From Thermoanaerobaculia bacterium (GTDB lineage Bacteria > Acidobacteriota > Thermoanaerobaculia > Multivoradales > Multivoraceae): a stretch of DNA of 64,000 nt. Below are positions 9,641 through 44,632 of the stretch, piece after piece. Numbering within the stretch: position 1 is the first letter of the stretch; the number at the start of each line of letters is the position of its first letter. A model generated the notes under the pieces. It worked only from the letters and a program-made list of their open reading frames with translations. It ran no database searches and was not told the DNA's origin. The position numbers and the translations under genes were made by a program. The stretch lies in NCBI GenBank assembly GCA_963664405.1, contig OY761158.1:2560001-2624000 (forward strand), given 5' to 3'.

Positions 9641-9730
9641 GGTCCCACCCGAATATTCTGCCATCCCGACGGAGGGATCTGCGGACAGGCGTTCAGCACA
9701 CAGGAGTGAGCGCGAACGCCCAGAATCCAG
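9641..9730 (+). repeat. REP-like repeat, copy A (degenerate)
   Basis: ggtcccacccgaatattctgcc...ggagggat...cgcgaacgccca aligns with 38341-38423 and 42858-42933. Confidence 0.65.
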
Positions 9731-29984: not shown

Positions 29985-30085
29985 CTTCGGCTGGCGAGGG
30001 TGCCAGCCCCCAGGCGGCAAAAATACTCGGCTGGCACCTCCGGCCGGCAGCACCTCCGGCAGCTGAAGGCTGCCTGGGCACCCGG
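29985..30085 (-). repeat. REP-like repeat, copy B with inverted core pair
   Basis: ggtgccagcc (29999-30008)/ggctggcacc (30029-30038) inverted pair; ggcagctgaaggctgcc hairpin variant. Confidence 0.65.
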
Positions 30086-30868: not shown

Positions 30869-31981
30869 ATGCTGCTGCCAGAAGACATTCCTACCCTACT
30901 CCGACCGACCGCAGCCGCCGCCTTGGTGTGGCTCAATCGCGAGCGCGGCACGAATTACGCGCTCACCGGGCTTGCGAACGTCGAGATGGCAGAGGTCGAC
31001 ACACTGCCGGCTGAGCCCTTTGAGCTCGGTCTGGTGCTCTGCGACGGCGACATCTGTGCGCGAGAGCAAGTTCGCGTGCGATCCGCAGGCGATGCCCACG
31101 AGTTCAGTTTCGTTGAAGCGCCGCCCGCGGACATCCCACCTCTGCTCGACCCACCGGCAGGCGTGCGAAGCCGATGGCTGGATCAGCAACTGGAGAAATT
31201 CGACTTCATTCTGCTGCTCTTCTATCGCGGGCGCTGGTGACCGCCCTGCCGCTTCGAGTTACGAAGCTACAAGAAGAGCGGCGTCCTGGACGCGATCCGC
31301 GAAGCCGGCGGGGAAGTGTTCGGGATTACCAGTGAGCCCCAGAGCCTCGCCACCGAGGCGGAGGAAGACTGGGAGATGGGGTTCCCGGTGATCGGCGATC
31401 CTCATCACGAGATTCGTGAGGTCTGCCAAGCGCGTGGCTGGTTGGACGTTTTCTTCAACGAGGATTGCGGCCACCTCGGCAGGCGTCCATGGGCAAGCCA
31501 TCCCAAGGGCTACTACCAACCCGCCGTGCTCGCGGTCACCCAAGAAGGGCGTGTGCTCTATCGGTGGCGGTGCGTGCCCAAGTACACCAATATAAGCGGC
31601 GCGGGCGCGCGGCCGGAAGCGGTCTATACCTGGAACAAAATGCAGGACACGATGCAGGACAGCACCGATGCAGAGCCGGATCGCGATCCCACACTCGGCG
31701 CAGAAGACCTCTCCTGGTTCCGCTTTCTGCTGATCATGGTGGCGCACGGCTGGTTCTTGCGTCCCAAGGCGTTTCCCCTGGCGCGCCCTGACGATCCGCG
31801 ACGCGTGAGCCCGCGCTTCATGATGCGCAGGGTCTACGGTTTTCTCGCGGTCTGGGCCGTGGCCCTGGTGTCGCTACCAGCGCAGTGGGTTGCAGGGGCG
31901 GCACTCGTGTGGGTGGCGGTGCTGACGCCGGGAATCATCGCCATACATCGCCAGTTTCAGAACGAGCCGGACGCGTACTAG
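30869..31981 (+). CDS. Putative peroxiredoxin-like (AhpC/TSA) selenoprotein, UxxC, with C-terminal membrane helices
   Basis: ORFs 30860..31240 and 31316..31981 are in frame across TGA 31238-31240: LLFYRGRW-U-PPC. Confidence 0.85.
31251..31267 (+). promoter_or_regulatory. Candidate bacterial SECIS hairpin
   Basis: GCTTCG-AGTTA-CGAAGC starting 10 nt after UGA; GU in loop. Confidence 0.65.
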
Positions 31982-32100
31982 ACCAGCGTTTCCGAAGTTC
32001 GAATCGCATAGCTCGAGGTCATTCTGTTCGCTGGCCAGGCGCGCCGACGCAGGCATATTGAGCGACTTCCGCCTGCCCAGGGCAGAATGTTCGGCTGGCA

Positions 32101-32951
32101 GTGCGACACGAAGGAGGAATCTGATGACCTGATCGAAAGACAGAGATAGGAGACCTCTGGGTCTCGAAGGCCGGCGGGTGAAAGTCCCGCCCGGGGAGTT
32201 GTCGGTACACCCCGGTAGCCGCCGGAGCAGTCGATTCGGGTGACCGTCCGGCTGAAGCCTCCGGAACATCTGGATTAAGTCCAGAGGGCAAAGGTGCAGG
32301 CCGCAACGCGAGTGAACCCTGAGAAGGCCCCGAAAGTTACTTGCTGGAGCCGACCCTCCTGCCATAAGGGGAAGGCCGCCGCTCGGCGGAGGAGCAACCG
32401 ATCGTTGAATCCGTCGAATCCAGCCGGGGTAGTGGGGGTGGCATGTACCGAAGGTCTTTGAGGCAACGTGTGAGACCCACGTCGGTGGCGGGTTGCGACC
32501 GCCAACCGGGAAGGCGTAAAAGGCCGTTCTCGGGCCGGGGTGGGAGTCGGAGGGGCTCGAAGTACTGATGAAGCCGGGTAACTCCGGTGGAGGGAAGGAG
32601 CCCTAGTTCTGGTGCGCTTTGGAAGGAGAAGGAGACCGGGATTGACGCAAGTCTAGGAACCCGAATGAGTCAAACGACTCCGGAAGAAGCTCTGTGACAA
32701 GGCCAAGCGAGAGGACGGTACAAGCTCCGATCGCAAGGAGCCGCCCGGCTAGATCGGGTCGAGGGGAACGACTCGCGAATGCCTTGTCGTGAAGCCAGTC
32801 CGGGAGCCGTGTGCGGGAGAACCGCAAGCACGGTTCGATGAGAGGCGGCGGGAAACGGAGCCAAGGACAGGAGAGTGAGGCACTCGCAACCGAAAGGGCG
32901 AGAAAACAGATGGGCCTGACCTACAGCCACCGCGCCCGCCGTCGACTCCAC
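32101..32951 (+). mobile_element. ORF-less (internally deleted) group II intron ribozyme
   Basis: 5' GTGCG; domain V gAGCcgtgtgcgggagaaccgcaagcacggttc (32804-32836); domain VI with branch A (32945) and ...AC end; RT remnant VKRLRKKLCDKAKRE. Confidence 0.9.
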
Positions 32952-32976
32952 CCTTAGCCAGCCAGCAGCAGGGGCC

Positions 32977-33004
32977 GAAGCCTGAAGCCTGTAGCCCGAA
33001 GCCT
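32977..33004 (+). repeat. Short heptamer tandem repeat (GAAGCCT-like x4)
   Basis: gaagcct gaagcct gtagccc gaagcct. Confidence 0.55.
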
Positions 33005-33107
33005 GCGCGGCCGCTCGAAGAGCCCTGAGCTACTTTGGTTGCGGCCCGCGGCCGCGCTAGGATTGAAAGACTTGAGAGGATGACAGTGGTGATGACAGAA
33101 TTGGGAC

Positions 33108-33401
33108 ATGGCCGTTTCAGAGGATGCACCCTTTGTTGATGTGAGAGAGGCAGCGCGAGTGCTGGCGGTGTCGGAGTCTACGGTCTGGCGGCAGATTCGG
33201 CGCGGCAGCCTTCCCAGCGTTCGACGAAGAGGCCGCCGACTGATTCCGCGACACGCCCTCGAGGCCTACTCCTACAGGCGGGATCAAGAGGAGGTTCCTG
33301 CCTTGCGCCGGGACCATCCCATGTTCCGCCTGGTCGGAGCGGGGCGCTCCGGCGGATCGACGCCGGGAGCGCGCGACAAGTACGGCGTCCTGAGCGAATG
33401 A
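33108..33401 (+). CDS. Excisionase-like HTH antitoxin
   Basis: VREAARVLAVSESTVWRQIRRGSLPS; ATGA overlap with PIN gene. Confidence 0.75.
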   Translation: MAVSEDAPFVDVREAARVLAVSESTVWRQIRRGSLPSVRRRGRRLIPRHALEAYSYRRDQEEVPALRRDHPMFRLVGAGRSGGSTPGARDKYGVLSE

Positions 33402-33808
33402 GACGTTGGGTCCTGTGGGACTCGAGCGCCGTTCTGGCCCTGCTCGACGCGGACGACGCCGATCACCAGCCGGCTGTCTCTGTTGCGGAGCGTATCGCTT
33501 CCGAAGAACGCCCGAGCTTCATCACCAACTACATTGAAGCCGAAGCGCACGCTCTCCTGCTGCGTAAACTCGGCAGGTCTCTGGCAAGGGAGTGGCTAAT
33601 GAGCGGTGGCCTCCCCGTGCTCAGAGCTCAAGCCAGCGAAGAGCAGCGCGCCAAAGAGATTCTCTCCCGCTACGCAGACAAGGACTGGAGTCTCTGCGAC
33701 GCCATATCATTCGCCGTAATGAACGGCCGCGAGGTGAGAACCGCTTTCAGCTTCGACCACCACTTTCGACAATACGGCCGGTTCCGAGTCTGGGGTCTTT
33801 CAGAGTGA
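33398..33808 (+). CDS. vapC: VapC/PIN toxin
   Basis: LWDSSAVLA, EAH, SLCDAISFAVM, FSFDHHF. Confidence 0.88.
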   Translation: MRRWVLWDSSAVLALLDADDADHQPAVSVAERIASEERPSFITNYIEAEAHALLLRKLGRSLAREWLMSGGLPVLRAQASEEQRAKEILSRYADKDWSLCDAISFAVMNGREVRTAFSFDHHFRQYGRFRVWGLSE

Positions 33809-33886
33809 CAGACCGAACCGCGTGAGCGCGTTCTATTCGCTCAGGATGGCCTGGTTCACCGTCAGCGAACCACGCATAGCCCAGAC

Positions 33887-35240
33887 CTACTCCGCACAGC
33901 GATAACTTTCGGCGGAACTTGGATCACCCCCTTTAAAATCCGCAAGCTGCGGAAACGGGCAATGCCTGCGCGTAAACGCACCATCCGGTCGGGAGCCAAT
34001 CAACTCGGTTGGGGCCTTTCCTTCTTCGACCCACTCAACCAACGGCGCCAAATAATCGACCACGTGAGCGCCAGGGCCTCCTCTACAGTGCTGCATTCCG
34101 GGTACCATGAAGAGCCTAAAAAACTCGGCCGCGCGCTCTGCCCCGCCGTTGGCCGCAATCACCTGATCAAGATAGTCGATGGCGCGTTGAGGGCGTAGGG
34201 GGTAATCGTTCCAGCCCTGATACATCAGAACCTTGCCACCGCGCGCTCGAAAAGCTGAGAGATCCGCCGTGTGCACATCGACAATCGCCGAAGCTCGGTT
34301 CCAGTGCAAGTCCGCTCGGTCCCTATTGACGTCGAACTCTGAACTATCGTACGTAAGATCGCGGTAAACCCAATATTTCAAGATGTCGTCGGCAGCCATG
34401 CCATTGAGCCTCCCCGCCAAAACCTCTCCGGTAGTGGGAACAGTGGCATTTGGCAAGGCCCACAAGGCCCAGTCGCCATGTCCCTCAGCTCCTGGCATCA
34501 GACCCGGTGAGAGCAGTTCGCCGCTCTCCGCGACGACACCTCGGTAGTGCTGCTGCACCGTGGCCAACTGACCCGCGGATAAGCACGTCGATGGGTTCTG
34601 GCCGGATCTGCAGTGCAACGTCGCGGGGTCGTAGTGTTCGTCAGTACACAAGCGGGGATCATTGATGACGCCGTCCTCGACTCCATCCAGGGTATCGCAA
34701 GCCCGGCGCGAAGCGTCTCCCAATAGTTTCAGCTCCGCCTCCTCCAATGGGTGGGCGTTCTGAGCGCGATCAGCCATGAGCACCCACAGCAGGAACTCAT
34801 CGTAATGAAACACCGGAGCACCAGCGACGATACCGTCGAAATCCTCAGGAAACCGGGTCGCTTCAATCATGCCCTGCCGCCCGCCATTGGAGCAGCCCTG
34901 ATAGTAGGAAAACTGAATCTCTCGGCGATAGAAAGCTGTGATGATTTCCTTGGAGAGCTGGGCGACCAGATGCACGGCGCGGAAGGCAAAGTCCAACGCC
35001 GCATCGGCTTGCAGGACAAAATCAATTGAACTCCCTTCATGTCCTGTATCCGTAGAGGACATGGCATAACCCCGGGCAAGCTCTGTAGTCGTGTCGGCAA
35101 TATAGCCCGAATTGCCGCCGGTGCCGACCATGAGAAAGCGGCCATTCCAATCGCGTAGCGGCATGCGAACTTCAAAACGAATGGCCCGGTTCAGCACGCC
35201 CCGTACGGCGCAATGCTCGGGGACGTAGCGCCCAGCTGGT
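33887..35240 (-). pseudogene. Tannase/feruloyl esterase family, lacking N-terminus
   Basis: GCSNGGRQG, DFDGIVAGAP, MVPGMQHCRGG; homology begins ~PEHCAVRG with no signal peptide. Confidence 0.8.
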
Positions 35241-36389
35241 CCGGACCGTGGACGGCAGAGAACTCTGGTCGGAGCACTACGACCGAGAGCTGGGCGATGT
35301 CTTCGCCGTCCAGGACGAGATCGCCGTTGCGATCGCCGAGGGAGCGACGGCGAAGATCTTGCCGCCACCTGCTCGCCCGGGGGGGGGGAGGGACTCACCG
35401 ACAACCAAGAGGTCAACTATCTCTTCCTGGAAGCCCAGCATCATCGTGTACAGGGGCACCACGGGGACAGGGAACGGGCCATCGAGCTCCTGGAGCGGGC
35501 GCTCGTCTTGGAGCCCAACTTCGCCGCCGGCCACGCTCTTCTTGCCCTGTGCTACAACAATCTGGCCTTCTTTAGTCTCGCGGCGACCGAGCAGGCTCGC
35601 TCCAAGGCGGAGACAGCAGCGGTCCGGGCTCTCGAGCTCGACGACTCGCTGGCCACCGCGCAGGTGGCCTTCGGGGTCGTCCGTTCCTGCTGCCACTGGG
35701 ACTGGGCGGGCGCGCAGCGAGCACTCCGGCGCGCCATCGAGCTCGATCCCGGAGCCCCGGGACCCCACTACTGGTATGCCATGGCCTGGCTCGCTCCCCT
35801 CGGCCGCCTCGAGGAGGCCGAACGAGAGTTGAGGACTTCTATCGAGCTCGACCCTTTGGCACCGCCACGTAGTTGGTCTCTCGCGCACGTCCTCTTCTGG
35901 TCGCGGCGCTACGATGCCGCCCTCCTCGAGCTCCGCCATGCGCTGGAGCTCGATCCGGGATCCCGCACAGCGCGTACTGCGCTCGCAATCGCTTACACGG
36001 CCCTGGAAAGCTGCGAGGACGCGCTGCCAAAGCGCCGGATCCTATTCGAGAGCCTGGGACAGCATGAGGTGGTGCAGGAAGCGGCTCGGATCTACCAGTC
36101 GGCCGGGGAAGAGGGAGTGCTCCGTTGGCTGTTCGAAGGGCGGCTACCACCTGCGAAAGCGAGCGACGATCACGTCTTCCACCAGGCCTGTTTGTTTTCC
36201 CAACTCGGCGAAAAAGAGTCCGCCTTCTCCTGCCTGGAGCAGGCCTTCGCCCGGAAGAGCGGCTGGATGCTCTACACGAAGGTTCTTCCCTGGCTCGACA
36301 ACTTGCGCTCCGATTCTCGCTTCGATGCCCTTCTCGAGCGCATGGGAGTCAACGATCCACGGGTAGCGACAGCGGGGGCGGTCGTCTAG
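35241..36389 (+). pseudogene. TolB-like/TPR C-terminal fragment of a signalling protein (frameshift at G-run ~35380)
   Basis: LWSEHYDRELGDVFAVQDEIA; repeated RALELDP TPRs; LRSDSRFDALL. Confidence 0.75.
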
Positions 36390-36427
36390 CATCTGGAGGC
36401 GTAGATTCAGACCGACAAGAAAGGCGG

Positions 36428-36582
36428 TTGTCAATCCGTCTCCTCCCGTTCCGGCCTCTCGCTACCGCCGTGCTCGCGCTCGCGGTGAGCGCCGCCTTCG
36501 CGTCGCCCAGCGGCCCCACGTCATCATCGTCATGACCGACGACCAGGGCTACCCCGAGCTTTCGGCGCACGGCAATCCGTAG
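36428..36582 (+). pseudogene. Sulfatase N-terminal remnant
   Basis: Signal peptide then PHVIIVMTDDQGYPELSAHGNP*, ending at TA promoter. Confidence 0.65.
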
Positions 36583-36594
36583 TAACGTTGCTAC
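36579..36594. promoter_or_regulatory. Palindromic operator of phd-vapC
   Basis: gtagtaacgttgctac near-perfect palindrome. Confidence 0.55.
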
Positions 36595-36608
36595 AATCAG
36601 GAGGCGAG

Positions 36609-36866
36609 ATGGCCACGAAGAAACTCACAAGCCGGGAATTCAACCAGGACACAGGTGGCGCCAAGAGGGCCGCCGAGTCAGGACCGATCTACATCACCGA
36701 TCGAGGTCGGCCCTCCCATGTGCTGTTGACTTTCGCCGACTACCAACGTCTCGCCGCGAACCAGCCGGGCATCATCGAGCTGCTCTCAGAACCGGAAGGA
36801 GTCGGGGACATCGATCTGGAAGTCGCGATCTCCCGTGAGCTACCTCAGCCTGCACGCTTCGACTGA
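36609..36866 (+). CDS. Phd/YefM family antitoxin
   Basis: LTSREFNQDTGGAKRAA, GPIYITDRGRPSHVLL. Confidence 0.9.
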   Translation: MATKKLTSREFNQDTGGAKRAAESGPIYITDRGRPSHVLLTFADYQRLAANQPGIIELLSEPEGVGDIDLEVAISRELPQPARFD

Positions 36867-37285
36867 TGTTCATCCTCGACACCAACGTCGTCTCGGAGCT
36901 CCGCAAGGCCAAGGCAGGCACAGCCAACCCCGGGGTCACCGAGTGGGCCATTGAAGTCCCGGCATCGTTGATGTTCCTGTCGGTGATCTCGCTTCACGAG
37001 CTCGAACATGGCGTGCTCCTGGCCGAGCGTCGCGATCCTGCCCAGGGCAGCGTTCTACGCCGGTGGCTCGACACCAGCGTCGCCACGGCGTTCGCCGATC
37101 GGTTTCTGCCCGTCGATGAGCCGGTCGCTCGACGAGCGGCCGCATTGCATGTTCCCGACCCGGCACCCTTTCGGGACGCCCTCATCGCCGCGACGGCGCA
37201 TGTGCACGCAATGACCGTCGTTACACGGAATGTGAGGGACTTCGGTCGTTTCGTCGGGCTCCATGTCACGAACCCCTGGACCTGA
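36866..37285 (+). CDS. vapC: VapC/PIN toxin
   Basis: FILDTNVVSELRK, DALIAATA, VVTRNVRDF. Confidence 0.92.
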   Translation: MFILDTNVVSELRKAKAGTANPGVTEWAIEVPASLMFLSVISLHELEHGVLLAERRDPAQGSVLRRWLDTSVATAFADRFLPVDEPVARRAAALHVPDPAPFRDALIAATAHVHAMTVVTRNVRDFGRFVGLHVTNPWT

Positions 37286-37376
37286 AAAACCGACTTGGTA
37301 TCTCCAATAGCTCACATTCGTGCCGTATGAATCAAGTTGCTATCGAAGTGAACTCGTGCTGGGTGGACGCCCGGCC

Positions 37377-38150
37377 CTAGGTAATCGTCGCCTCGACGTA
37401 GCCGAACGCGGACGAGACAACCTCCACGTGAGTCTTCTCACCCAGTGGCAGAGCCGGCCCGAATGCGCCGGTCAGGAGCGTTTCGCCCTTACGGATCCGC
37501 CGACCGTCCGCGGCCAGCTTTCCCACCATCCAGACTACGGCCCGCAAGATATCGCGTGGCCAGGACAGCGAGGGCCACGAATCAACCACCTCACCGTCGA
37601 AAAGCACCACCAGGTCCGTGGATAGTGACGTGGCCGGCGCCGGGCTCCCCACGCCGCGAACGACCCCGGCATGAATCGCATTGTTCGCAATCAGCTCGTG
37701 GCCCCGCGGTGGCTCGCCCCTCATCATCAGATTGTGCAGCTCAATGACCGGGAAGATCCGGTCGATTGATTTCGAGAATGTGTCGATCGTGACGGAGTCC
37801 GGGTTGATGTCGCGGCCGAGGGTAACCGCAAATTCACCTTCGATGGCGATGTTCGCAAAGTCCCTCTTCGAGAGCTTGGCGCCATTGACATGCTGCTCCG
37901 TTGACCAGAGCCGTGCCCAGACCGGATGCGAGAGTCCGGTGGACCGCTGATTCGCCGGGTTGATAGCGCCGATCTTGTATCCGACCAACTGCTCGCCGCG
38001 CTGCTCCCTCAGATCGGCAACCGCAGCCTGTAGCTTCCAGGCGTCATCGACCGACAGCCGCAGCCCTTCGCCAAACACGGTGCCGGGATCTCTGGCATCG
38101 TAGTCGCGCAACATACGTTCGGCCAAGGCGGCAAAATCGGGTTCTGGCAT
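37377..38150 (-). CDS. 2-keto-4-pentenoate hydratase (FAH superfamily)
   Basis: GYKIG, IEGEFA, IANNA, LLTGA. Confidence 0.8.
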   Translation of the reverse strand: MPEPDFAALAERMLRDYDARDPGTVFGEGLRLSVDDAWKLQAAVADLREQRGEQLVGYKIGAINPANQRSTGLSHPVWARLWSTEQHVNGAKLSKRDFANIAIEGEFAVTLGRDINPDSVTIDTFSKSIDRIFPVIELHNLMMRGEPPRGHELIANNAIHAGVVRGVGSPAPATSLSTDLVVLFDGEVVDSWPSLSWPRDILRAVVWMVGKLAADGRRIRKGETLLTGAFGPALPLGEKTHVEVVSSAFGYVEATIT

Positions 38151-38320
38151 CGGATTCCTCGGTTTCGGGAGACGTACAGCGTATTCGAGCAGGGGACCTA
38201 GAGCGAGCGTTCTCGGTGGAAGCCGGCCGGTGAGCGTCTAGGATCCGGAACCTCAGAATGGATCATCGCGATTAGGAGCATAGCGCTATGCGCGTACCAT
38301 CCGGTGTCACCACAACGCCC

Positions 38321-38530
38321 GGCAGCCTTCGGCTGCCAAGGTGCCAGCCGAGTATTCTGCCCTCCACTCGGGGAGGGATTTGCAGCCGAGCGGTCAGCCC
38401 GCAGGGATGATCGCGAACGCCCAAGATCCCGTTGGGGCTACCTGCGCGCTGCGCGCGCTGGTATCCCCAAGTAACCCTATTTTGAACACCCCTAAGTATC
38501 GCTATTTTGAACACCTGGATGGATTGGCTG
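38321..38530 (+). repeat. REP-like repeat, copy D (intact, uninterrupted)
   Basis: ggcagccttcggctgcc hairpin + aaggtgccagccgagtattctg core + ~180 bp near-identical to 42858-43040, including tattttgaacacc x2. Confidence 0.85.
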
Positions 38531-38727
38531 ACTGGGCTTGGCAAGCTGAGACGAGTCCTCCAACAGGGATGATCATCACCACAAGCCGAGGAGAAGATCG
38601 GGGATCTTCCGGGATCTTCTGGTCGGAGAGACCTCCTTCCGACTCGTGTCTGCCGCCTTCTCGTGCACTACGTGATTCGCAACTAGCTCTCGACGCGTGA
38701 GTTAGCGTTCGGCCGATTTATCGCACC

Positions 38728-39312
38728 CTACGCCCGCAACTTGAAGCGGCGAGGCGGCCGACTCGGTGACACGTGGTTCTTGGACGAAGTCTTCGTGAAT
38801 ATCCAGGGCCAGCGGCAGTATCTCTGGCTTGCCATCGATCAGGAGGGAGATGTGATCGACATCCTCGTGCAGCCACGCCGAGATCGAAGAGCAGCGGAAC
38901 GCTTCTTCCGCAAGCTCTTGAAGGGCCAAGGGGCAGAACCGGTGCTCCTGGTGACCGACAAGCTGAGGAGTTATGGCGCAGCGCATCGGACCACCATGCC
39001 CTCCGTCAGGCACGATACGAGCCAGTACGCGAACAATCGGGCTGAGGTCTCCCATCAGCCGACCCGCCAGCGAGAGCGACAGATGCGCCGCTTCAAGTCG
39101 CCCGGCCAGGCGCAGCGATTCCTCTCCGCTCACGGAGTCATCCAGAACCTTTTCCGCGTCGGGCGGCACCTCGTGAGCGCAGGCGACCACCGTACGCTGA
39201 GAGATCGTTCTTTCGGCGTCTGGCGGCAGGTGACGTGCGCCTGCTGAATCCGAGCCGACCAACCCTTGATAACGCCAGATCTCGCCTCGGCCAAGGCCAA
39301 GTTGACAGTGCC
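38728..39312 (+). mobile_element. IS6 family element copy 2 (5'-truncated)
   Basis: Partial transposase 38741..39247; right IR aagttgacagtgcc. Confidence 0.9.
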
Positions 39313-39322
39313 GCGCGGAGAC

Positions 39323-40825
39323 CTAGTCTGCGGCCCGTACGTCTTCGTTGAAGACCTCGCCGGTCACCCCGTAGTGTCGGAATGTCGCGGTGGGGACACC
39401 GTCGAGCCTCGACACCTCGACGGCTAGAAAACCGCCCTTGGGCCGGTAGTAGAGCAGCTGGGAGTGATCGGTGTTCGCCATCGTCGTTGCGTGCACGTCG
39501 GTCGAGGGGCCGGACGAATACTCCAACATCCCCGTCTCGTGGTGTCGCGACACATACTGCCAGTGGCGATCACCGGTTATGAAATACATGTTCTTCTGTG
39601 CGCTGATGAACTCACGCAGCATGTCGCCTTCGTGAGACCACTCGGGATCCGCATGATTGTCCGACAGGTCGGCCTTCCACAGATGATCGGGGCCGACCAT
39701 GGGTGTCGGGCTGATCAATATCCTGAAGGTGGCATCCGAGGCCTCGACCGTTTGCTTGAACCAGGCGACCTGCTCCTTGCCCCACATCGTCTTTTGCGGC
39801 CCGTCCGGATCGTGATTCGGGCTGCGGAAGTCGCGGACCTCGACCAGCCAGATCTGCAGATCCTTGCCCCAGCGAAAAGTCCTGTACCGGCGCTCGCTCA
39901 TCGGCACCTGCTCACCGTAGACCAGGCCGCCCTGTTGGTAGGTGAAGAGGCCCATCCGTGGCGGCATCGTCGGCCAGCAGTCGTTCTGCCATGAATCGTG
40001 GTCGTCTTTCATGAAGTAGGACGGCACCGCGTTGTGAAAATCGCGAGTATTGGGCAGACCGAACAGCCTGTTCCATCGGAACCGTGCCAGATCGATGTGC
40101 GTCGTGTAGGGGTCCAAAAGGTCGTAGTAGACGATGTCTCCAGTGTGGACGAAGAATTCGGGTCGGAGGGCCAGCATGGCTCGAAAGAACTTGTGACCCT
40201 TGTCACCGTCATCCCGTGAGCTGTGGCGTGTGCCGGTGACGACGGTGAAGAGCACTCGGCTCGAGCGATCTTTCGGCGGCGCGGTCTCGAAGGAGCTGCG
40301 CAGGACAGCGCTTATCGGGCTCGCGGCGCTCTTTCTGCCTTCGACCGTCAACGAATACTCTGTGTCGGACTTCAACCCCTCCAACTTGAAGTGCCTGGTG
40401 AAGTCCCTGTCGTCCTCGACCGGCGTCCAGCCCAATACCCTCTTACTGTCCTCGTTCCCTCTCTCTGTGAAGGTGACTCTCACGTCTCCCTTCGTGCCGG
40501 GCACCGCCCCCGCTGCCTCCTCCAGGGACGCTCCCTGTGGTAGCTGAAATGCGTAGCCACCGGACGGTCCCATCTGCTCGTCGAGGATGTTCGCGTTGAC
40601 GAAGAAGTCCTTCTCTCCGAAGTTTCTGAACAGGATGCCTTCGGGGTCCGGTGCCGCTACGCTCGTCAACCGGGTCCAGACGATCACGCTGTCGGAGGTG
40701 AGCTCACCGATCTTGATGCCGTTGCCCATGTACACCCCCGAGTCGTCCTGGGCGCCGCAGAAGCCACTATGCAGTCCGAACAGCACGACCAGGGATAGCG
40801 TGACAAGTTGCTTTCGATCAGGCAT
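39323..40825 (-). CDS. PhoD-like alkaline phosphatase
   Basis: Signal peptide; VWTRL, HTGDIVYYD, KDDHD, TGDRHW. Confidence 0.85.
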   Translation of the reverse strand: MPDRKQLVTLSLVVLFGLHSGFCGAQDDSGVYMGNGIKIGELTSDSVIVWTRLTSVAAPDPEGILFRNFGEKDFFVNANILDEQMGPSGGYAFQLPQGASLEEAAGAVPGTKGDVRVTFTERGNEDSKRVLGWTPVEDDRDFTRHFKLEGLKSDTEYSLTVEGRKSAASPISAVLRSSFETAPPKDRSSRVLFTVVTGTRHSSRDDGDKGHKFFRAMLALRPEFFVHTGDIVYYDLLDPYTTHIDLARFRWNRLFGLPNTRDFHNAVPSYFMKDDHDSWQNDCWPTMPPRMGLFTYQQGGLVYGEQVPMSERRYRTFRWGKDLQIWLVEVRDFRSPNHDPDGPQKTMWGKEQVAWFKQTVEASDATFRILISPTPMVGPDHLWKADLSDNHADPEWSHEGDMLREFISAQKNMYFITGDRHWQYVSRHHETGMLEYSSGPSTDVHATTMANTDHSQLLYYRPKGGFLAVEVSRLDGVPTATFRHYGVTGEVFNEDVRAAD

Positions 40826-40875
40826 CGGTGTGTCTCTCTGTTGTGAGTCGGTTTAGGTGCGGGCGACAGATGGAT

Positions 40876-41269
40876 CTAAGGTTTCACATCGGCCGCGTCC
40901 GGCAGCTCCTCGTCGACGCGGAGCCAACCGATCTTCTCGTGCCGAAAGTCGTGAAAGCCCGCCGGAAAGGCGCCCGGGTCGTCGAAAATGCCAAGCGTAA
41001 TGTAGATGCGCTCGGGGCGCGGCTTGAAGCCGAAGCACAGGCTCGACCCGCAAGTCGGGCAGAAGCCCCGCCAAGCGCGCGCGCTCGAGTCGTATCGTAG
41101 CAGGCTCCGTCGACCATCGAACCTGGTCGCTGGCGAAAGTCGCGAACGTAGCCACCACGGCGCCTACCGCCCTGCGACACATTTCGCAGTGACAGTGGGT
41201 GACTCGACGCGGAGGACCCTCGGCTTCGAAGCGGGTCGCGCCGCAAAGGCAGCCGCCGGTGATGGTCAT
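40876..41269 (-). CDS. GFA family protein (frameshift near 41100)
   Basis: TGGCLCG, HCHCEMCRR, then RGFCPTCGSSL in shifted frame. Confidence 0.8.
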
Positions 41270-41349
41270 TGGCAGTTGAATTGTACTCGGGAGCTGAATC
41301 TTGCGTCGGCTGGCCAGGTCAGGCAGCCTACGGCTGCCAAGGTGCCACA

Positions 41350-41769
41350 CATTAGAAGGCCCGAGTCAAGCGAGCTCATCTCTCCTGGTCCGGCCTCCTG
41401 GGCCGGCGTTTTTTTCGGGACGAGGGCTTTTCTATCCCGTTCACGAGCTCGCTCGATGGCATCCGGGTTCTCTTCGTTGAGGGTGTCGGATCGAGTCCGC
41501 ACCAGCCACACATCAGGATCTAGGCCCGTGGGCTCGTTAGAGCATGGGGCCCCACGCGCCAGGCGCGCTAGAAAACCGTTGGGTTGACCGATCCACATCC
41601 ACGGGGTGAGTGACAGTCGATTGGGCTGCCCGTAAGGGCTCCAGCACCATTTGGCTCATGGATCGGGCGCATCGTCGAGCTCGAGAAGACGGAGGAAGAC
41701 CGGGGCGTTCCATTCACCCGACTGGGCTTGGTTGCCAGCACCTAGTACGGTTCGGCCCCGGCCTTCCGA
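41350..41769 (-). ncRNA. Predicted bridge/seek RNA of the IS110 element
   Basis: Segments AGGTGC (41738-41743) and TCGGGTG (41715-41721) match the two halves of the target; ATGTGTG (41507-41513) matches the element end plus core. Confidence 0.7.
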
Positions 41770-42764
41770 TCATCCAAAGGCTCGTTCGGGTTCAAAGGGC
41801 ACTTGATCTCGCATCACGTAGTAGCAAGCCCTAGCGAGCTTGTTGGCTAGGGCACGGATCGCCACGATCCGGTGGGTCTTGGCGGCCTTGCGCTCGACGT
41901 ATCTCCGCGCGAGGGGCTCGAGGCGGATGGCGAAGTGGGCCGCTTCGGTGAAGGCCCAGGACAAGTAGGGATTGCCATTGCGCTTGGCGTTGCTGATCCG
42001 TGCGGTGCTCACGCACCGACAGTAGGAGGCAAAGTTCCCCACCTTGGCGAAACGCCGGATGTCGCCCACCTCGCACATGATCGTAAGCGCGATCGCCTCA
42101 CCAATCCCTCGCACGGTCTGGAGCAGGCGAAACTCCTCGCGCAGCTTCGCCTCGGTGAGCACGGCCTTCTCGATCCGTCGGATCTGAGCCGACAGCACGG
42201 TTGTGACCCGAAGCTGCGAGCTCATCGACAGCGCCACCCGGGGTCGTCGCAGAGCCTCTCGACCTCCCGCACCTTCCACTGTTTCATCTCGCGAGCCGTC
42301 ACCCGCACTCCGGTGTGCTGCTCGTAGATCGCCCCGATGGACAGCAGCAGCGAGGTGCGCTTGCGCACCAAAAAGGCACGCCGGCGTAGCAGATCCCGCC
42401 ACGGACGCTCCTCTTTCGGGTAGATGTAGCCCTCGGGCAGGATCCCCAGGCACAGCAAACGCGCCAGCCAACGAGCGTCGTCACGGTCGTCCGTGTACTT
42501 GAGGCCCTCGTATTGCTGCACCACCGAGGTATTGGTCAGATGGACCCGGTACCCGGCTTCCATCAGACCATCCACCAGCCAATACCAGTTGCGCGTCGAC
42601 TCAACGGCAACGCCCTCGACATCCTCCCGATACGGCTCGAGCCGACCCAGGATCTCGCCTAGCTCATTGCGTAGACGTCCTTGGCACACCGTCTTGAGCT
42701 CCTCGTCCAGAATCACCAAGTAGTTGTTGCTTGAATGCAGATCGATACCGCCGTACAGTGACAT
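41770..42764 (-). pseudogene. IS110 DEDD transposase (frameshift ~42230, probable short deletion near catalytic Ser region)
   Basis: GIDLH, VEST, KYTDDRDDA; C-terminal GNPYLSWAFTEAA...ALANKLAR. Confidence 0.85.
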
Positions 42765-42857
42765 CGGCTCCTCCTCTTCGTTGCGCTGCTTACACCGGCA
42801 GCTTGGTTTCCGCCGAGGCTAGCGCTACGACGGGGGGAGCCTTCTAGATGAGTTTCA

Positions 42858-43040
42858 TCCGAATATTCTGACACTCGAGCGGTGAGGGATTTGCAGCCGA
42901 GCGGTCAGCCCGCAGGGCTGATCGCGAACGCCCAAGATCCCGTTGGGGCTACCTGCGCGCTCCGCGCGCTGGTATCCCCAAGTAACCCTATTTTGAACAC
43001 CCCAAATAGCTCTATTTTGAACACCTGGGTGGATTGGGCC
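42858..43040 (+). repeat. REP-like repeat, copy E (right part; left part 41322-41347)
   Basis: Near-identical to copy D once the IS110 is removed. Confidence 0.85.
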
Positions 43041-43183
43041 ACTCAACTCGTCAAGCTGAAGCTCATGCTCCAACCCCGCTGATCGCCCCAGAAACAGAGG
43101 AGGAGTTTGGGCATCTTCCTCAGCCCCCGCGTTGTGGGCTGGACCTCCACGAAGCCGTTCTCCCGGGTGCCCAGACGGCGTAG

Positions 43184-43558
43184 CTAGGAGGGCTCACGCA
43201 ACGGCAGCAAACGTGCGCGCGAGCCGTCTGGATCCACAACCACCACAGCCCCTTGCACTAGGTTCTTCTCGTGTTGGCGAAGGACCTGAATGACCGTGGA
43301 AGCGGTTTCACTCGGCAGGAGGCGATGGGAGCGAAGCTGAACGACGCTGGGACCTCGACTTCCTGTCAGCGCGAGGAGGCGACTGAAGTCCAGGTCGTGG
43401 GACAGCAAGACGTAGTCGTGGCGGCGCGCCCACTCGAAGATCTCTCGATCAGGGGCACCTCCTTCGCCCACGGTGCTCCAATGCTGGGCCTCGATGCCAG
43501 CGTCCTCCAGCACCTCTACCCACGAAGGCGACAGGTTCATGTCGAGGAGGACCTTCAA
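43184..43558 (-). CDS. DUF5615 PIN-like toxin
   Basis: MKVLLDMNLSP, APDREIF, LSHDLDF. Confidence 0.85.
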   Translation of the reverse strand: MKVLLDMNLSPSWVEVLEDAGIEAQHWSTVGEGGAPDREIFEWARRHDYVLLSHDLDFSRLLALTGSRGPSVVQLRSHRLLPSETASTVIQVLRQHEKNLVQGAVVVVDPDGSRARLLPLREPS

Positions 43559-43785
43559 CTTGTCGCGACCGGAACCTCTTGCTCCTCGAGACGCCAGGCT
43601 GCATAGGCGAGAGCCTGGCCGATATCGTCAGGCTCTAGGTAGGGGTACGCCTCCAAGACTTCGTCCCGCGTGTGGCCTTCGGCAAGTAGTCCGACAACCG
43701 TCCCGACTGTCACCCGGAGGCCGCGAATGCAGGGTCGTCCCCCCATCACGTCCGGATCGAGAGTTATCCGATCGAGCTTGGTCAT
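43555..43785 (-). CDS. DUF433 antitoxin
   Basis: RITLDPDVMGGRPCIRGLRVTV...YPYLEPDDI. Confidence 0.9.
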   Translation of the reverse strand: MTKLDRITLDPDVMGGRPCIRGLRVTVGTVVGLLAEGHTRDEVLEAYPYLEPDDIGQALAYAAWRLEEQEVPVATS

Positions 43786-43825
43786 GGTTGTATTATAAGC
43801 CTGACCCCTCCCGATCCCCTCGAGA

Positions 43826-44632
43826 GGTACTGTCAGGTTGAGCCTGTTGGTGGCAGAGTGCGCCCATGAAGAGCAGCACACTCAGCTACCGCGGCTATCG
43901 GTTCCCGCCCGAGATCATCGCCCACGCAGTCTGGCTCTACCATCGCTTCTGTCTGAGCCTTCGGGACGTCGAGGATCTCCTGGCGGAGCGCGGAATCACC
44001 GTCTCCCACGAGACCATCCGCCAATGGTGCCGGAAGTTCGGCACCGAGTACGCACGGAAGCTGAAGCGGCGGGGAGGCAGACTGGGCGACACGTGGTTCT
44101 TGGACGAGCTGTTCGTGACCATTCAGGGCAAGAGGCAGTACTTGTGGCGTGCTGTCGATCAGGACGGCGACACAATCGACATCCTCGTGCAGCCGCGCCG
44201 CGATCGGAGGGCAGCAGCGCGCTTCTTCCGCAAGCTGTTGAAGGACCAAGGAGCAGAGCCGCTGCGCCTGGTGACCGACAAGTTGAGGAGCTATGGCGCA
44301 GCGCATCGGACCACTATGCCCTCTGTCAGGCACGATACGAGCCAGTACGCCAACAATCGAGCGGAGGTCTCCCACCAGCCGACTCGGCAACGAGAGCGAC
44401 AGATGCGCCGCTTCAAATCGCCCGGCCAAGCGCAGCGATTCCTGTCCGCTCACGGAGCCATCCAGAACCTGTTCCGTCTTGGCCGTCACCTCGTCAGCGC
44501 ACCCAACCATCGTACGCTGCGAGATCGTTCCTTCGGCGTCTGGCGGCAGGTGACGTGCATCTGCTGAATCCGAGCCGACCAACCCTTGATAACGCCAGAT
44601 CTCGCCTCGACCAAGGCCAAGTTGACAGTGCC
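43826..44632 (+). mobile_element. IS6 family element copy 3 (intact transposase 43866-44567)
   Basis: IRs ggtactgtcaggtt / aagttgacagtgcc; DDE motifs. Confidence 0.95.

Follow-up and report, generated by a model that had tools for sequence, protein, structure and literature searches.

Why should two unrelated mobile elements, a group II intron without an open reading frame (ORF) and an IS110-family insertion sequence (IS) of IS1111 type, sit in copies of the same short repeat, and what is that repeat? The question is raised by a stretch of 64,000 nucleotides (the window) from a Thermoanaerobaculia bacterium, which covers positions 2,560,001 to 2,624,000 of contig OY761158.1. All coordinates below are window positions unless the source genome (G000, one 6.78-Mb contig) is named. 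We found that the two insertion points lie 3 nt apart on an 18-nt box, and we consider it probable that this box is a REP-like (repetitive extragenic palindrome-like) repeat of Y1 transposases, used as a landing site by the intron and the IS, each by way of its own RNA. The anatomy of the sites, the copy numbers, the covariation of guides with targets and the association of the box with Y1 genes were observed directly; from them we infer that both elements were once active here and are adapted to the box rather than having met on it by accident. The occupied and empty boxes of the window are as follows.

32086..32100, plus strand: 5' part of the intron-occupied box, the 5' exon of the intron, which carries the intron-binding sites IBS2 and IBS1 (AATGTTCGGCTGGCA)
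32952..32954, plus strand: 3' part of the same box, CCT, the first bases of the 3' exon, placed from the 3' exons of complete copies
42856..42870, minus strand: left part of the IS-occupied box, CAGAATATTCGGA plus the core TG
41322..41347, minus strand: right part of the IS-occupied box (core TG and GCACCT) with the hairpin GGCAGCC-GTA-GGCTGCC
38339..38356, minus strand: empty box, AATACTCGGCTGGCACCT
38321..38337, minus strand: GC-rich hairpin after the empty box, GGCAGCC-GAA-GGCTGCC
30022..30038, plus strand: further empty box, AATACTCGGCTGGCACC (source genome 2590022-2590038)
9641..9657, minus strand: further box with one mismatch, AATATTCGGGTGGGACC (source genome 2569641-2569657)

On the plus strand, the intron site reads ...GGGCAGAATGTTCGGCTGGCA / GTGCG...(851 nt)...CCAC / CCTTAGCC, where the slash marks a junction; the intron starts with GUGCGAC at 32101 and ends with ...GACUCCAC at 32951, followed by the flank CCTTAGCCAGCC. 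On the minus strand, the IS site reads ...CAGAATATTCGGA-TG / AAACTCAT...(1508 nt)...TAATGTG / TG-GCACCTTGGCAGCC. After ...CAGAATATTCGGA-TG the element continues from 42855 downwards as AAACTCATCTAGAAGGC..., and its last letters, ...GGGCCTTCTAATGTG at 41348, are followed by the flank TG-GCACCTTGGCAGCCGTAGGCTGCC. The empty copy on the minus strand is GGGCAGAATACTCGGCTGGCACCTTGGCAGCC (38331-38362), and together with its hairpin it runs uninterrupted as GGGCAGAATACTCGGCTGGCACCTTGGCAGCCGAAGGCTGCC (38321-38362). When the elements were removed in silico, the intron site and the IS site were each identical to the empty copy in 29 of 33 columns, and to each other in 28 of 34. The core TG stands on both sides of the IS and once in the empty copy, with no other target duplication. 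The insertion point of the intron is 3 nt downstream (to the right) of this core, and with respect to the box the two elements are co-oriented. The intron interrupts the box between GCA/CCT, inside the target of an IS guide, and the IS interrupts it between CUG/GCA, inside the target of exon-binding site 1 (EBS1) of the intron. The first-pass annotation had described both elements in copies of one repeat, 3 nt apart and co-oriented, with a TG core left by removal of the IS, an empty copy, and each insertion splitting the recognition sequence of the other element; the boundaries and the empty copy, read directly, agree with it on all of these points.

The box has the sequence AATATTCGG(C/G)TGGCACCT, and conservation is confined to these 18 nt, which is the span used by both elements. 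Its 13-mer TTCGG(C/G)TGGCACC was found in 41 exact copies in the source genome, compared with 0.96 expected from base composition, so that the earlier description of the repeat as multi-copy is correct; 70 more copies have one mismatch, about half of which could be chance by a rough estimate. By nhmmer iteration, 39 copies of the box plus hairpin were collected, in which the hairpin stems differ among box subfamilies and the loops are GAAG-, GGAG- or GRAG-like. Six pairs of boxes form divergent (inverted) doublets, 38-41 nt apart.

With the Pfam model PF01797 (Y1) we found 13 matches in the source genome, of which 12 exceed the cut-off; the open frames that contain them are about 300-440 aa long and show the HUH motif as well as a conserved RRY. 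When two of the 13 Y1 proteins were scanned, the best NCBIfam hit was the REP-associated tyrosine transposase (RAYT) model NF047646, well above the IS200 model. We searched 850 nt around the start of each gene and found an outward-facing 10-mer of the box upstream of 9 of the 13, compared with 0.14 expected; a tenth gene has a box split by the intron copy at 6396014 of the source genome, and next to an eleventh there is a variant with two mismatches. For most Y1 genes the distance from the upstream box is 34-166 nt, and a downstream box at 220-250 nt was found for two of the 13 by the strict 10-mer and for one more as a variant. Among 40 related genomes, the 17-mer with at most one mismatch was present in five (6 copies in G025, 7 in G026, and one each in G027, G034 and G037); it was present in 0 of 24 same-family genomes, and the reversed-pattern control gave 0 everywhere. 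G025 and G026, the two other box-bearing genomes examined, have Y1 homologues at 39-48% identity, and in G025 two outward-facing boxes lie about 150-200 nt upstream of one of them. Based on the abundance of the box and its position beside Y1 genes that resemble RAYTs, we read it as the REP-like repeat of a family of RAYT-like Y1 (HUH) transposases of about 300 aa, with the caveats that the genes are multi-copy and score below the curated threshold; the Y1 proteins would be the agents that spread it. A different arrangement was seen in G026, where four tandem boxes AACATTCGGGTGGCACC, each followed by TCCTCCCGCTTGG, lie within 200 nt (locus L124, G026:C22:42400-42750) with one inverted copy among them; such a tandem array was not seen in the source genome.

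The intron and its predicted recognition segments have the following positions.

32101..32951, plus strand: ORF-less group II intron of 851 nt, GUGCG...CCAC, delimited with Rfam and sister copies
32360..32365, plus strand: EBS1, UGCCAU, in a hairpin loop of domain 1, which would pair with the IBS1 sequence (C/G)UGGCA
32264..32269, plus strand: candidate EBS2, GAACAU, which would pair with AUGUUC at -14 to -9 of the window site

The Rfam model RF02003 (group-II-D1D4-4) scored 99.7 bits at 32172-32311 (gathering score 49), and the ends GUGCG at 32101 and ...CCAC at 32951 follow the GUGYG/AY rule and are identical in the relatives. On its own strand, the window intron contains no ORF of at least 100 aa, and thus no reverse transcriptase (RT)/maturase gene in domain 4 (D4). 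In a complete copy at 6214298-6216332 of the source genome, the 454-aa ORF is intact and encodes RVT_1 and GIIM domains; its nearest solved relative is the GsI-IIC RT. The window intron is 96.7% identical to this copy over nt 1-613 and 94.5% over nt 656-854, and is therefore a deletion derivative which kept the first ORF codons; it retains D1-D3, D5 and D6, and about 1.18 kb of the D4 ORF is gone. Since the ORF-less copy is single in the source genome, there is no sign of movement after the deletion.

Two more complete copies, at 2890811-2892986 and 6396014-6401261 of the source genome, and two fragments, at 1588808-1589105 and 2075290-2075364, bring the set to four complete copies including that of the window and two fragments, and in 6/6 the box is the 5' exon. 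The six 5' exons end in ...AATGTTCGGCTGGCA, ...AATACTCGGCTGGCA, ...AATATTCGGCTGGCA, ...TTTTTCGGGTGGCA, ...AATAGTCGGCTGGCA and ...ATAATCGGCTGGCA; the variation of the occupied sites at -11 to -15 indicates that they are independent. The 3' exons of the four complete copies start with CCT, CCT, CTT and CCT, and the flanks are otherwise unrelated. Other group II intron sequence interrupts two of the sister copies (2890811-2892986, L097, and 6396014-6401261, L098) at intron nt 463/464; L098 contains three D5/D6 matches, a second D1-D4 type (RF01999) and two distinct RT ORFs, of which one splits the other, so that introns are nested up to three deep there. Near the copy with the intact RT gene, co-oriented boxes lie at 6212126, 6212883, 6213513 and 6214283 of the source genome, spaced 630-770 nt, and the last of the four holds this full-length intron.

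The EBS1 assignment was examined in homologous introns. A distant paralogue at about 884.7-887.1 kb of the source genome has CAGAAG in the loop opposite the 5' exon CUUCUG, and in introns of other genomes from the order, CUGGCA faces UGCCAG or UGUCAG, UCAGGCU faces AGUCUGA, and CAGGGU faces ACCCUG. At least four different loop/exon pairs thus covary, and judged by this covariation UGCCAU is EBS1. For EBS2 and IBS2, no consistent covariation was found among the homologous introns.

In two metatranscriptome libraries from the same study, contigs that contain no exon sequence extend over 32109-32767 and 32114-32920, the latter crossing the deletion junction with 8 differences and one gap. Neither intron-exon junction is bridged by these contigs, and the next 5 kb are almost uncovered. 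This pattern is compatible with abundant free intron RNA; contigs, however, say nothing about levels, and DNA may be present in an RNA library. The minimum of the cumulative GC skew at about 2.75 Mb places the window (2.56-2.62 Mb) near the presumed replication origin. With the origin set by this minimum alone, five of six intron copies are co-oriented with the leading strand compared with 15 of 41 exact empty boxes (one-sided Fisher p = 0.043; small sample), which fits an endonuclease-less intron using the lagging-strand template.

The IS has the following parts, all on the minus strand.

41348..42855: IS1111-type element of the IS110 family, 1508 nt between the two copies of the core TG
41770..42764: transposase gene in two frames (42764-42222 and 42471-41770), with a frameshift near 42216-42243
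42839..42846: left subterminal inverted repeat TAGAAGGC of 8 nt, with its partner at 41353-41360
41690..41765: predicted seekRNA- or bridge-RNA-like element directly after the stop codon, with an architecture conserved in relatives
41738..41744: predicted T guide TAGGTGC, complementary to the top strand GCACCTA (GCACCTT at the actual site)
41715..41721: predicted B guide TCGGGTG, equal to the top strand of the G variant of the box including the core TG (TCGGATG at the actual site)

The N-terminal ORF matched PF01548 (DEDD, RuvC-like) with 38.3 bits and the C-terminal ORF matched PF02371 with 47.3 bits. By tblastn, a relative of 338 aa aligns in two frames with a switch at residues ~150-175, as expected from one frameshift. 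Contigs from two DNA-like runs, one of which may be the source sample, are letter-identical over 41349-42913 and weakly support the frameshift as real; the copy is probably dead now. The non-coding parts comprise 91 nt upstream and 424 nt downstream of the gene, and the TAGAAGGC repeats lie 9 and 5 nt from the tips. The full element is single in the source genome, where two solo right-end remnants were also found: the remnant at 5044594-5044676 runs into TG-GCACCTAT... and that at 4203003-4203052 into TG-GCACCTTG..., so that 3/3 right ends adjoin TG/GCACCT(T/A), the remnants at TG/GCACCTA and TG/GCACCTT. The first-pass annotation had named copies of either element at unrelated sites as the finding that would speak against it; all six introns and all three IS right ends are at the box. 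In a scan with one genome per species, we found 79 loci of relatives with at most 66% amino-acid identity. Their ends, which could be set only where a genome has several copies, have the consensus TG-ATAATCATCTAGAAGGC... and ...GCCTTCTAATGGGTG, matched by the ends of the window IS; the relatives also terminate in ...TG and start with TG-ATAATCAT, and their flanks are genome-specific short repeats.

Downstream of the transposase gene, the window IS and its relatives have the same predicted architecture: a long outer stem, a variable segment of 7-8 nt, a small hairpin TGG...CCA, another variable segment whose last letters are TG, and finally ATTGG. When 28 sequences were aligned, compensatory changes appeared in 10 of the 12 consensus pairs predicted. 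The segments in the relatives vary together with their flanks. In L011 the guide ATAGGTGC faces the right flank GCACCTAT, and AGCCTG corresponds to the left flank AAGCCTG; in L074 ATAGGAC faces G-TCCTAC, and AGAAATG corresponds to the left flank AGAAATG; in L049 GGGGT faces ACCCC, and AGGTTTG corresponds to AGGTTTG. In an automated test, for which ends and guides could be set in 16 of 64 loci, the mean number of guide-flank matches was 3.81 of 7 for T and 3.94 of 6 for B. In 2000 permutations the means were 2.89 and 2.30 and the maxima 3.75 and 3.38, and none reached the observed values; a looser extraction with 22 loci and 1000 permutations left the outcome unchanged. The window IS matches its own site in 6 of 7 positions for T and 6 of 7 for B. 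Taken alone, it has five matches of at least 6 nt compared with 4.1 expected in shuffles, which is not significant, and therefore its guides are convincing only through the comparison with relatives. By that comparison, TAGGTGC and TCGGGTG hold up as the predicted guide segments of the IS. The segments named earlier are indeed present, UGCCAU at 32360-32365 and, on the reverse complement, TCGGGTG at 41715-41721 and AGGTGC at 41739-41744, and the covariation in relatives supports them as the right guides for intron EBS1 and for both IS segments. An alternative pair, CGGATG and TGCCATC (non-coding nt 305-315), fitted the actual site equally and was set aside after comparison with relatives. Rfam gave no match in the non-coding region of the IS (E up to 1, 31000-44500). 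The T guide lies 5' of the B guide, with the top-strand match first, and the same order is reported for IS1111 elements (PMC11187229).

Taken together, these data suggest the following course. Y1 (HUH) transposases would have spread the box to roughly 80-110 places in the source genome. EBS1 of the intron, UGCCAU, would pair with (C/G)UGGCA, and the AT-rich head of the box would be bound by another segment, probably GAACAU; the intron would then reverse-splice between ...GGCA and CCT. The window intron, having lost its RT ORF, could be mobile only with protein from the intact sister copy. The seekRNA-like loops of the IS would read TCGGGTG on the left, including the core TG, and GCACCTA on the right, with recombination at TG. 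The 3-nt spacing of the insertion points and the common orientation of the elements would follow from the fact that a single 18-nt box contains both recognition sequences.

Several observations weigh against this course. On the side of the repeat, some boxes have no hairpin, only 3 of 13 Y1 genes have boxes on both sides, and the two Y1 proteins scanned reach 54.5 and 58.9 bits with NF047646, below the cut-off of 80; with 13 copies, the Y1 genes also differ from classical single-copy RAYTs. On the side of the intron, RF00029 (D5/D6) scores 35.6 bits at 32802-32951, under the gathering score of 40, compared with 41.4 and 40.4 bits in two sister copies. The candidate EBS2 pairs 6/6 with the window site only and 4-5/6 with the other intron sites, and the segment varies among relatives but fails to explain their 5' exons; intron relatives in other genomes are mostly found at CGAAGNNN-CTGGCA, outside the box. 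As for the IS, its site preference in the source genome comes from one full copy and two remnants, and its frameshifted transposase weighs against present activity. The real site TCGGATG/GCACCTT has two mismatches to the ideal TCGGGTG/GCACCTA, while at least four empty boxes (2310418, 3805256, 4801319 and 5032750 of the source genome) fit both guides perfectly, and the window IS was missed by the end-finding patterns, so that it is outside the permutation tests. Finally, no empty-site allele, ligated exons or IS circle junction was found in the runs X1, X2, X7 and X8; all of these runs consist of contigs, and the absence of such joints therefore means little. A joint 38361>43030 with 12 foreign letters was seen in X1 and X2, and is probably another copy of a unit of about 240 nt described below.

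Other explanations were weighed against a REP-like box read by two guide RNAs. The first-pass annotation had seen in the repeat a shared multi-copy safe harbour, reached by convergence of a ribozyme and a bridge recombinase, with competition for sites as a consequence. Both elements do target the same 18 nt through RNA, and each insertion is directly seen to split the site of the other, but we think this account doubtful, at perhaps a quarter of the weight a sure reading would carry. The box belongs to another mobile system as the cognate repeat of RAYT-like Y1 transposase genes and is not neutral DNA, and competition has no support: the intron family fills just six boxes and the IS one, and IS remnants stand in two more, compared with 41 exact and about 110 (111 by count) near-exact boxes; the only full IS copy is frameshifted, and no ORF is left in the window intron. 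At this occupancy the mutual splitting of sites has no visible consequence. A loose scan for left half-boxes before foreign DNA gave 260 matches (35 intact and 225 without GCACCT), nearly all chance, and no new kind of inserted element beyond five re-found intron sites. The convergence part of the claim is plausible as an inference; half of the box is already a target of relatives elsewhere, with CTGGCA used by those of the intron and TG/GCACCTA by those of the IS, and full convergence is therefore not required. A box that is a protein-binding or regulatory site such as an operator or promoter, with both elements exploiting nothing but its abundance, seems unlikely to us. The position 34-166 nt upstream of most Y1 genes would suit it, as would the apparent likeness of TGGCAC to a sigma-54 -24 element, and the box occurs in several families of the order, yet in none of the 24 same-family genomes searched. 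However, conservation ends at 18 nt without a fixed -12 element, for which reason a sigma-54 promoter was rejected; the inverted doublets 38-41 nt apart, the tandem arrays in G026, the varying stems of the hairpins after the box and the boxes downstream of Y1 genes do not suit a regulatory site either, and the multi-copy spread tracks the presence of Y1 genes in G025 and G026.

Two further explanations are very improbable in our view. If two unrelated, untargeted insertions had fallen into similar short sequences by coincidence, the five short matches between the IS non-coding region and its flank against 4.1 expected would be unsurprising, but such a coincidence would also have to account for 6/6 introns and 3/3 IS right ends at the box, for guides that covary with flanks in relatives, and for a box that is 40-fold over-represented. 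Hardly better is the idea that the shared 5' sequence travels with the intron, by a mis-set boundary or a co-mobilised exon, and is not a pre-existing target. It is true that about 10-15 nt directly upstream are common to all intron copies; intact boxes that lack the intron, however, read ...GGCA-CCT exactly where it would be inserted, the intron and its relatives alike begin with GUGCG, positions -11 to -15 differ between sites, and relatives elsewhere have other upstream sequences and keep CTGGCA opposite UGCCAU. The reading that we retain is the REP-like box used by both elements through their own RNAs. We put forward only tentatively, as something we would not expect to hold in all its parts, an extension of it to parasitism in three layers, in which the head of the Y1 repeat attracts RNA-guided elements by re-targeting of their guides, the intron chooses by orientation, and Y1 is disabled. 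If it were true, the IS would have kept the ancestral right guide GCACCTA, which it shares with its closest relatives, and re-programmed the left guide only, and an intron lineage which elsewhere reads CGAAG...CTGGCA would have re-tuned its second exon-binding site. The two elements would read overlapping parts of one sequence that is multiplied by a third, protein-guided element; the intron would pick boxes by replication orientation (5/6 compared with 15/41 empty boxes on the leading strand); and each insertion would disable the repeat for its own Y1 transposase, leaving a natural record of guide re-targeting.

REP or REPIN sequences and RAYTs form a known system, in which a short dispersed repeat stands in outward-facing copies on either side of the gene for a Y1 HUH protein. 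The present repeat is similar in its dispersed single copies and inverted doublets, often beside a GC-rich hairpin. It differs in that the proteins are about 300 aa, occur in 13 copies and fall under the NCBIfam cut-off, in that an 18-nt head rather than a palindrome is conserved, and in that the same box is found in different families of the order. ORF-less group II introns can be mobilised or spliced with a protein provided in trans. The window intron resembles them in having an intact sister copy that is 95-97% identical over the retained RNA parts, but it is the only ORF-less copy in the source genome.

The closest parallel is found in integrons, where IS1111-attC elements and group IIC-attC introns are reported to insert in a fixed orientation near the 5' end of attC sites (Léon and Roy, PMC3001079); ISPa21, ISPst6 and ISKpn4 are named as attC-targeting IS1111 examples (PMC3001079; PMC11187229). 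As in the cases described there, the same two families insert with specific orientation into one multi-copy, hairpin-associated repeat of another genetic system. Here, however, the target is the REP-like box of Y1 genes and the points are 3 nt apart within 18 nt; and the present intron is not a typical class C intron, in that its RNA is longer, has a candidate EBS2 and has the hairpin downstream, not upstream, of the insertion point. REP-targeting elements of the IS110 family include IS621, ISPa11, ISPpu9 and ISPpu10 (PMC1525189), and among the copies tabulated by Tobes and Pareja, 6/6 of ISPa11, 7/7 of ISPpu9 and 7/7 of ISPpu10 are at REPs; in P. putida KT2440, 2/9 copies of a group II intron are also at REPs (PMC1525189). 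The present IS is likewise a site-specific IS110-family insertion into a REP-type repeat. Compared with the KT2440 data given there, 6/6 intron copies are in the repeat here and the IS is a single dead copy, the repeat has a conserved non-palindromic 18-nt head with a variable hairpin, and guides are identified for both elements. RNA-guided targeting by IS1111 elements was shown in 2024 with the seekRNAs of ISEc11, ISPa11 and ISKpn4, and the traits given for the group are subterminal inverted repeats and a non-coding region that is longer on the downstream side of the transposase gene (PMC11187229). As in those elements and in IS621 with its bridge RNA (PMC11208160), the window IS has its non-coding region downstream and short subterminal repeats, but compared with the seekRNA systems reported its guides are predicted from DNA alone, its subterminal repeat is only 8 nt, and its transposase is frameshifted.

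It is clear that the behaviour was already known for both families and that what differs here is the host repeat, with both guides identified; the locus does not reveal anything that would require a new mechanism. Its use lies in having one compact 18-nt target on which to compare directly what two different RNA-guided insertion mechanisms recognise; the window also holds an empty copy for reference, and the genome offers dozens of additional targets. So far, IS1111 elements and group II introns had been noted to share integron attC sites, and this locus adds a REP-like repeat in a little-studied bacterial lineage; about 80 relatives of the IS, with guide positions predictable from their sequence, should be useful for mining programmable recombinases.

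Between the intron and the IS lie a tannase-like gene (33887-35416, minus strand), a TPR fragment, a PhoD-like phosphatase gene, a GFA-family gene and, at 38741-39247, a 5'-truncated gene of the IS6 family (DDE_Tnp_IS240). Two pairs resembling toxin-antitoxin systems were found at 33108-33808 and 36588-37285 (HTH_17 with PIN, and Phd/YefM with PIN). This region looks like a patchwork, island-like stretch. The toxin-antitoxin pairs had suggested an integron with attC sites, a reading that was rejected for lack of an attC-like core, for the mixed orientation of the genes, and for the tannase, the PhoD and the IS6 fragment in between; no search for an integron integrase was made.

The empty box and the IS-occupied box each terminate a common unit of about 240 nt (38290-38560 and 42856-43059; 88.8% identical), which contains several internal hairpins and two tandem copies of GGTGTTCAAAATAG. 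Rfam gave no match to this unit in the same search of 31000-44500 (E up to 1), and no tie was found to the copies of the IS6-like transposase or to the Y1 genes; fragments of it occur at about eight other places in the source genome. At 35380-35390, where the tannase-like ORF on the minus strand meets the TPR ORF on the plus strand, there is a G run, cgggggggggagg, and both genes appear truncated at this point.

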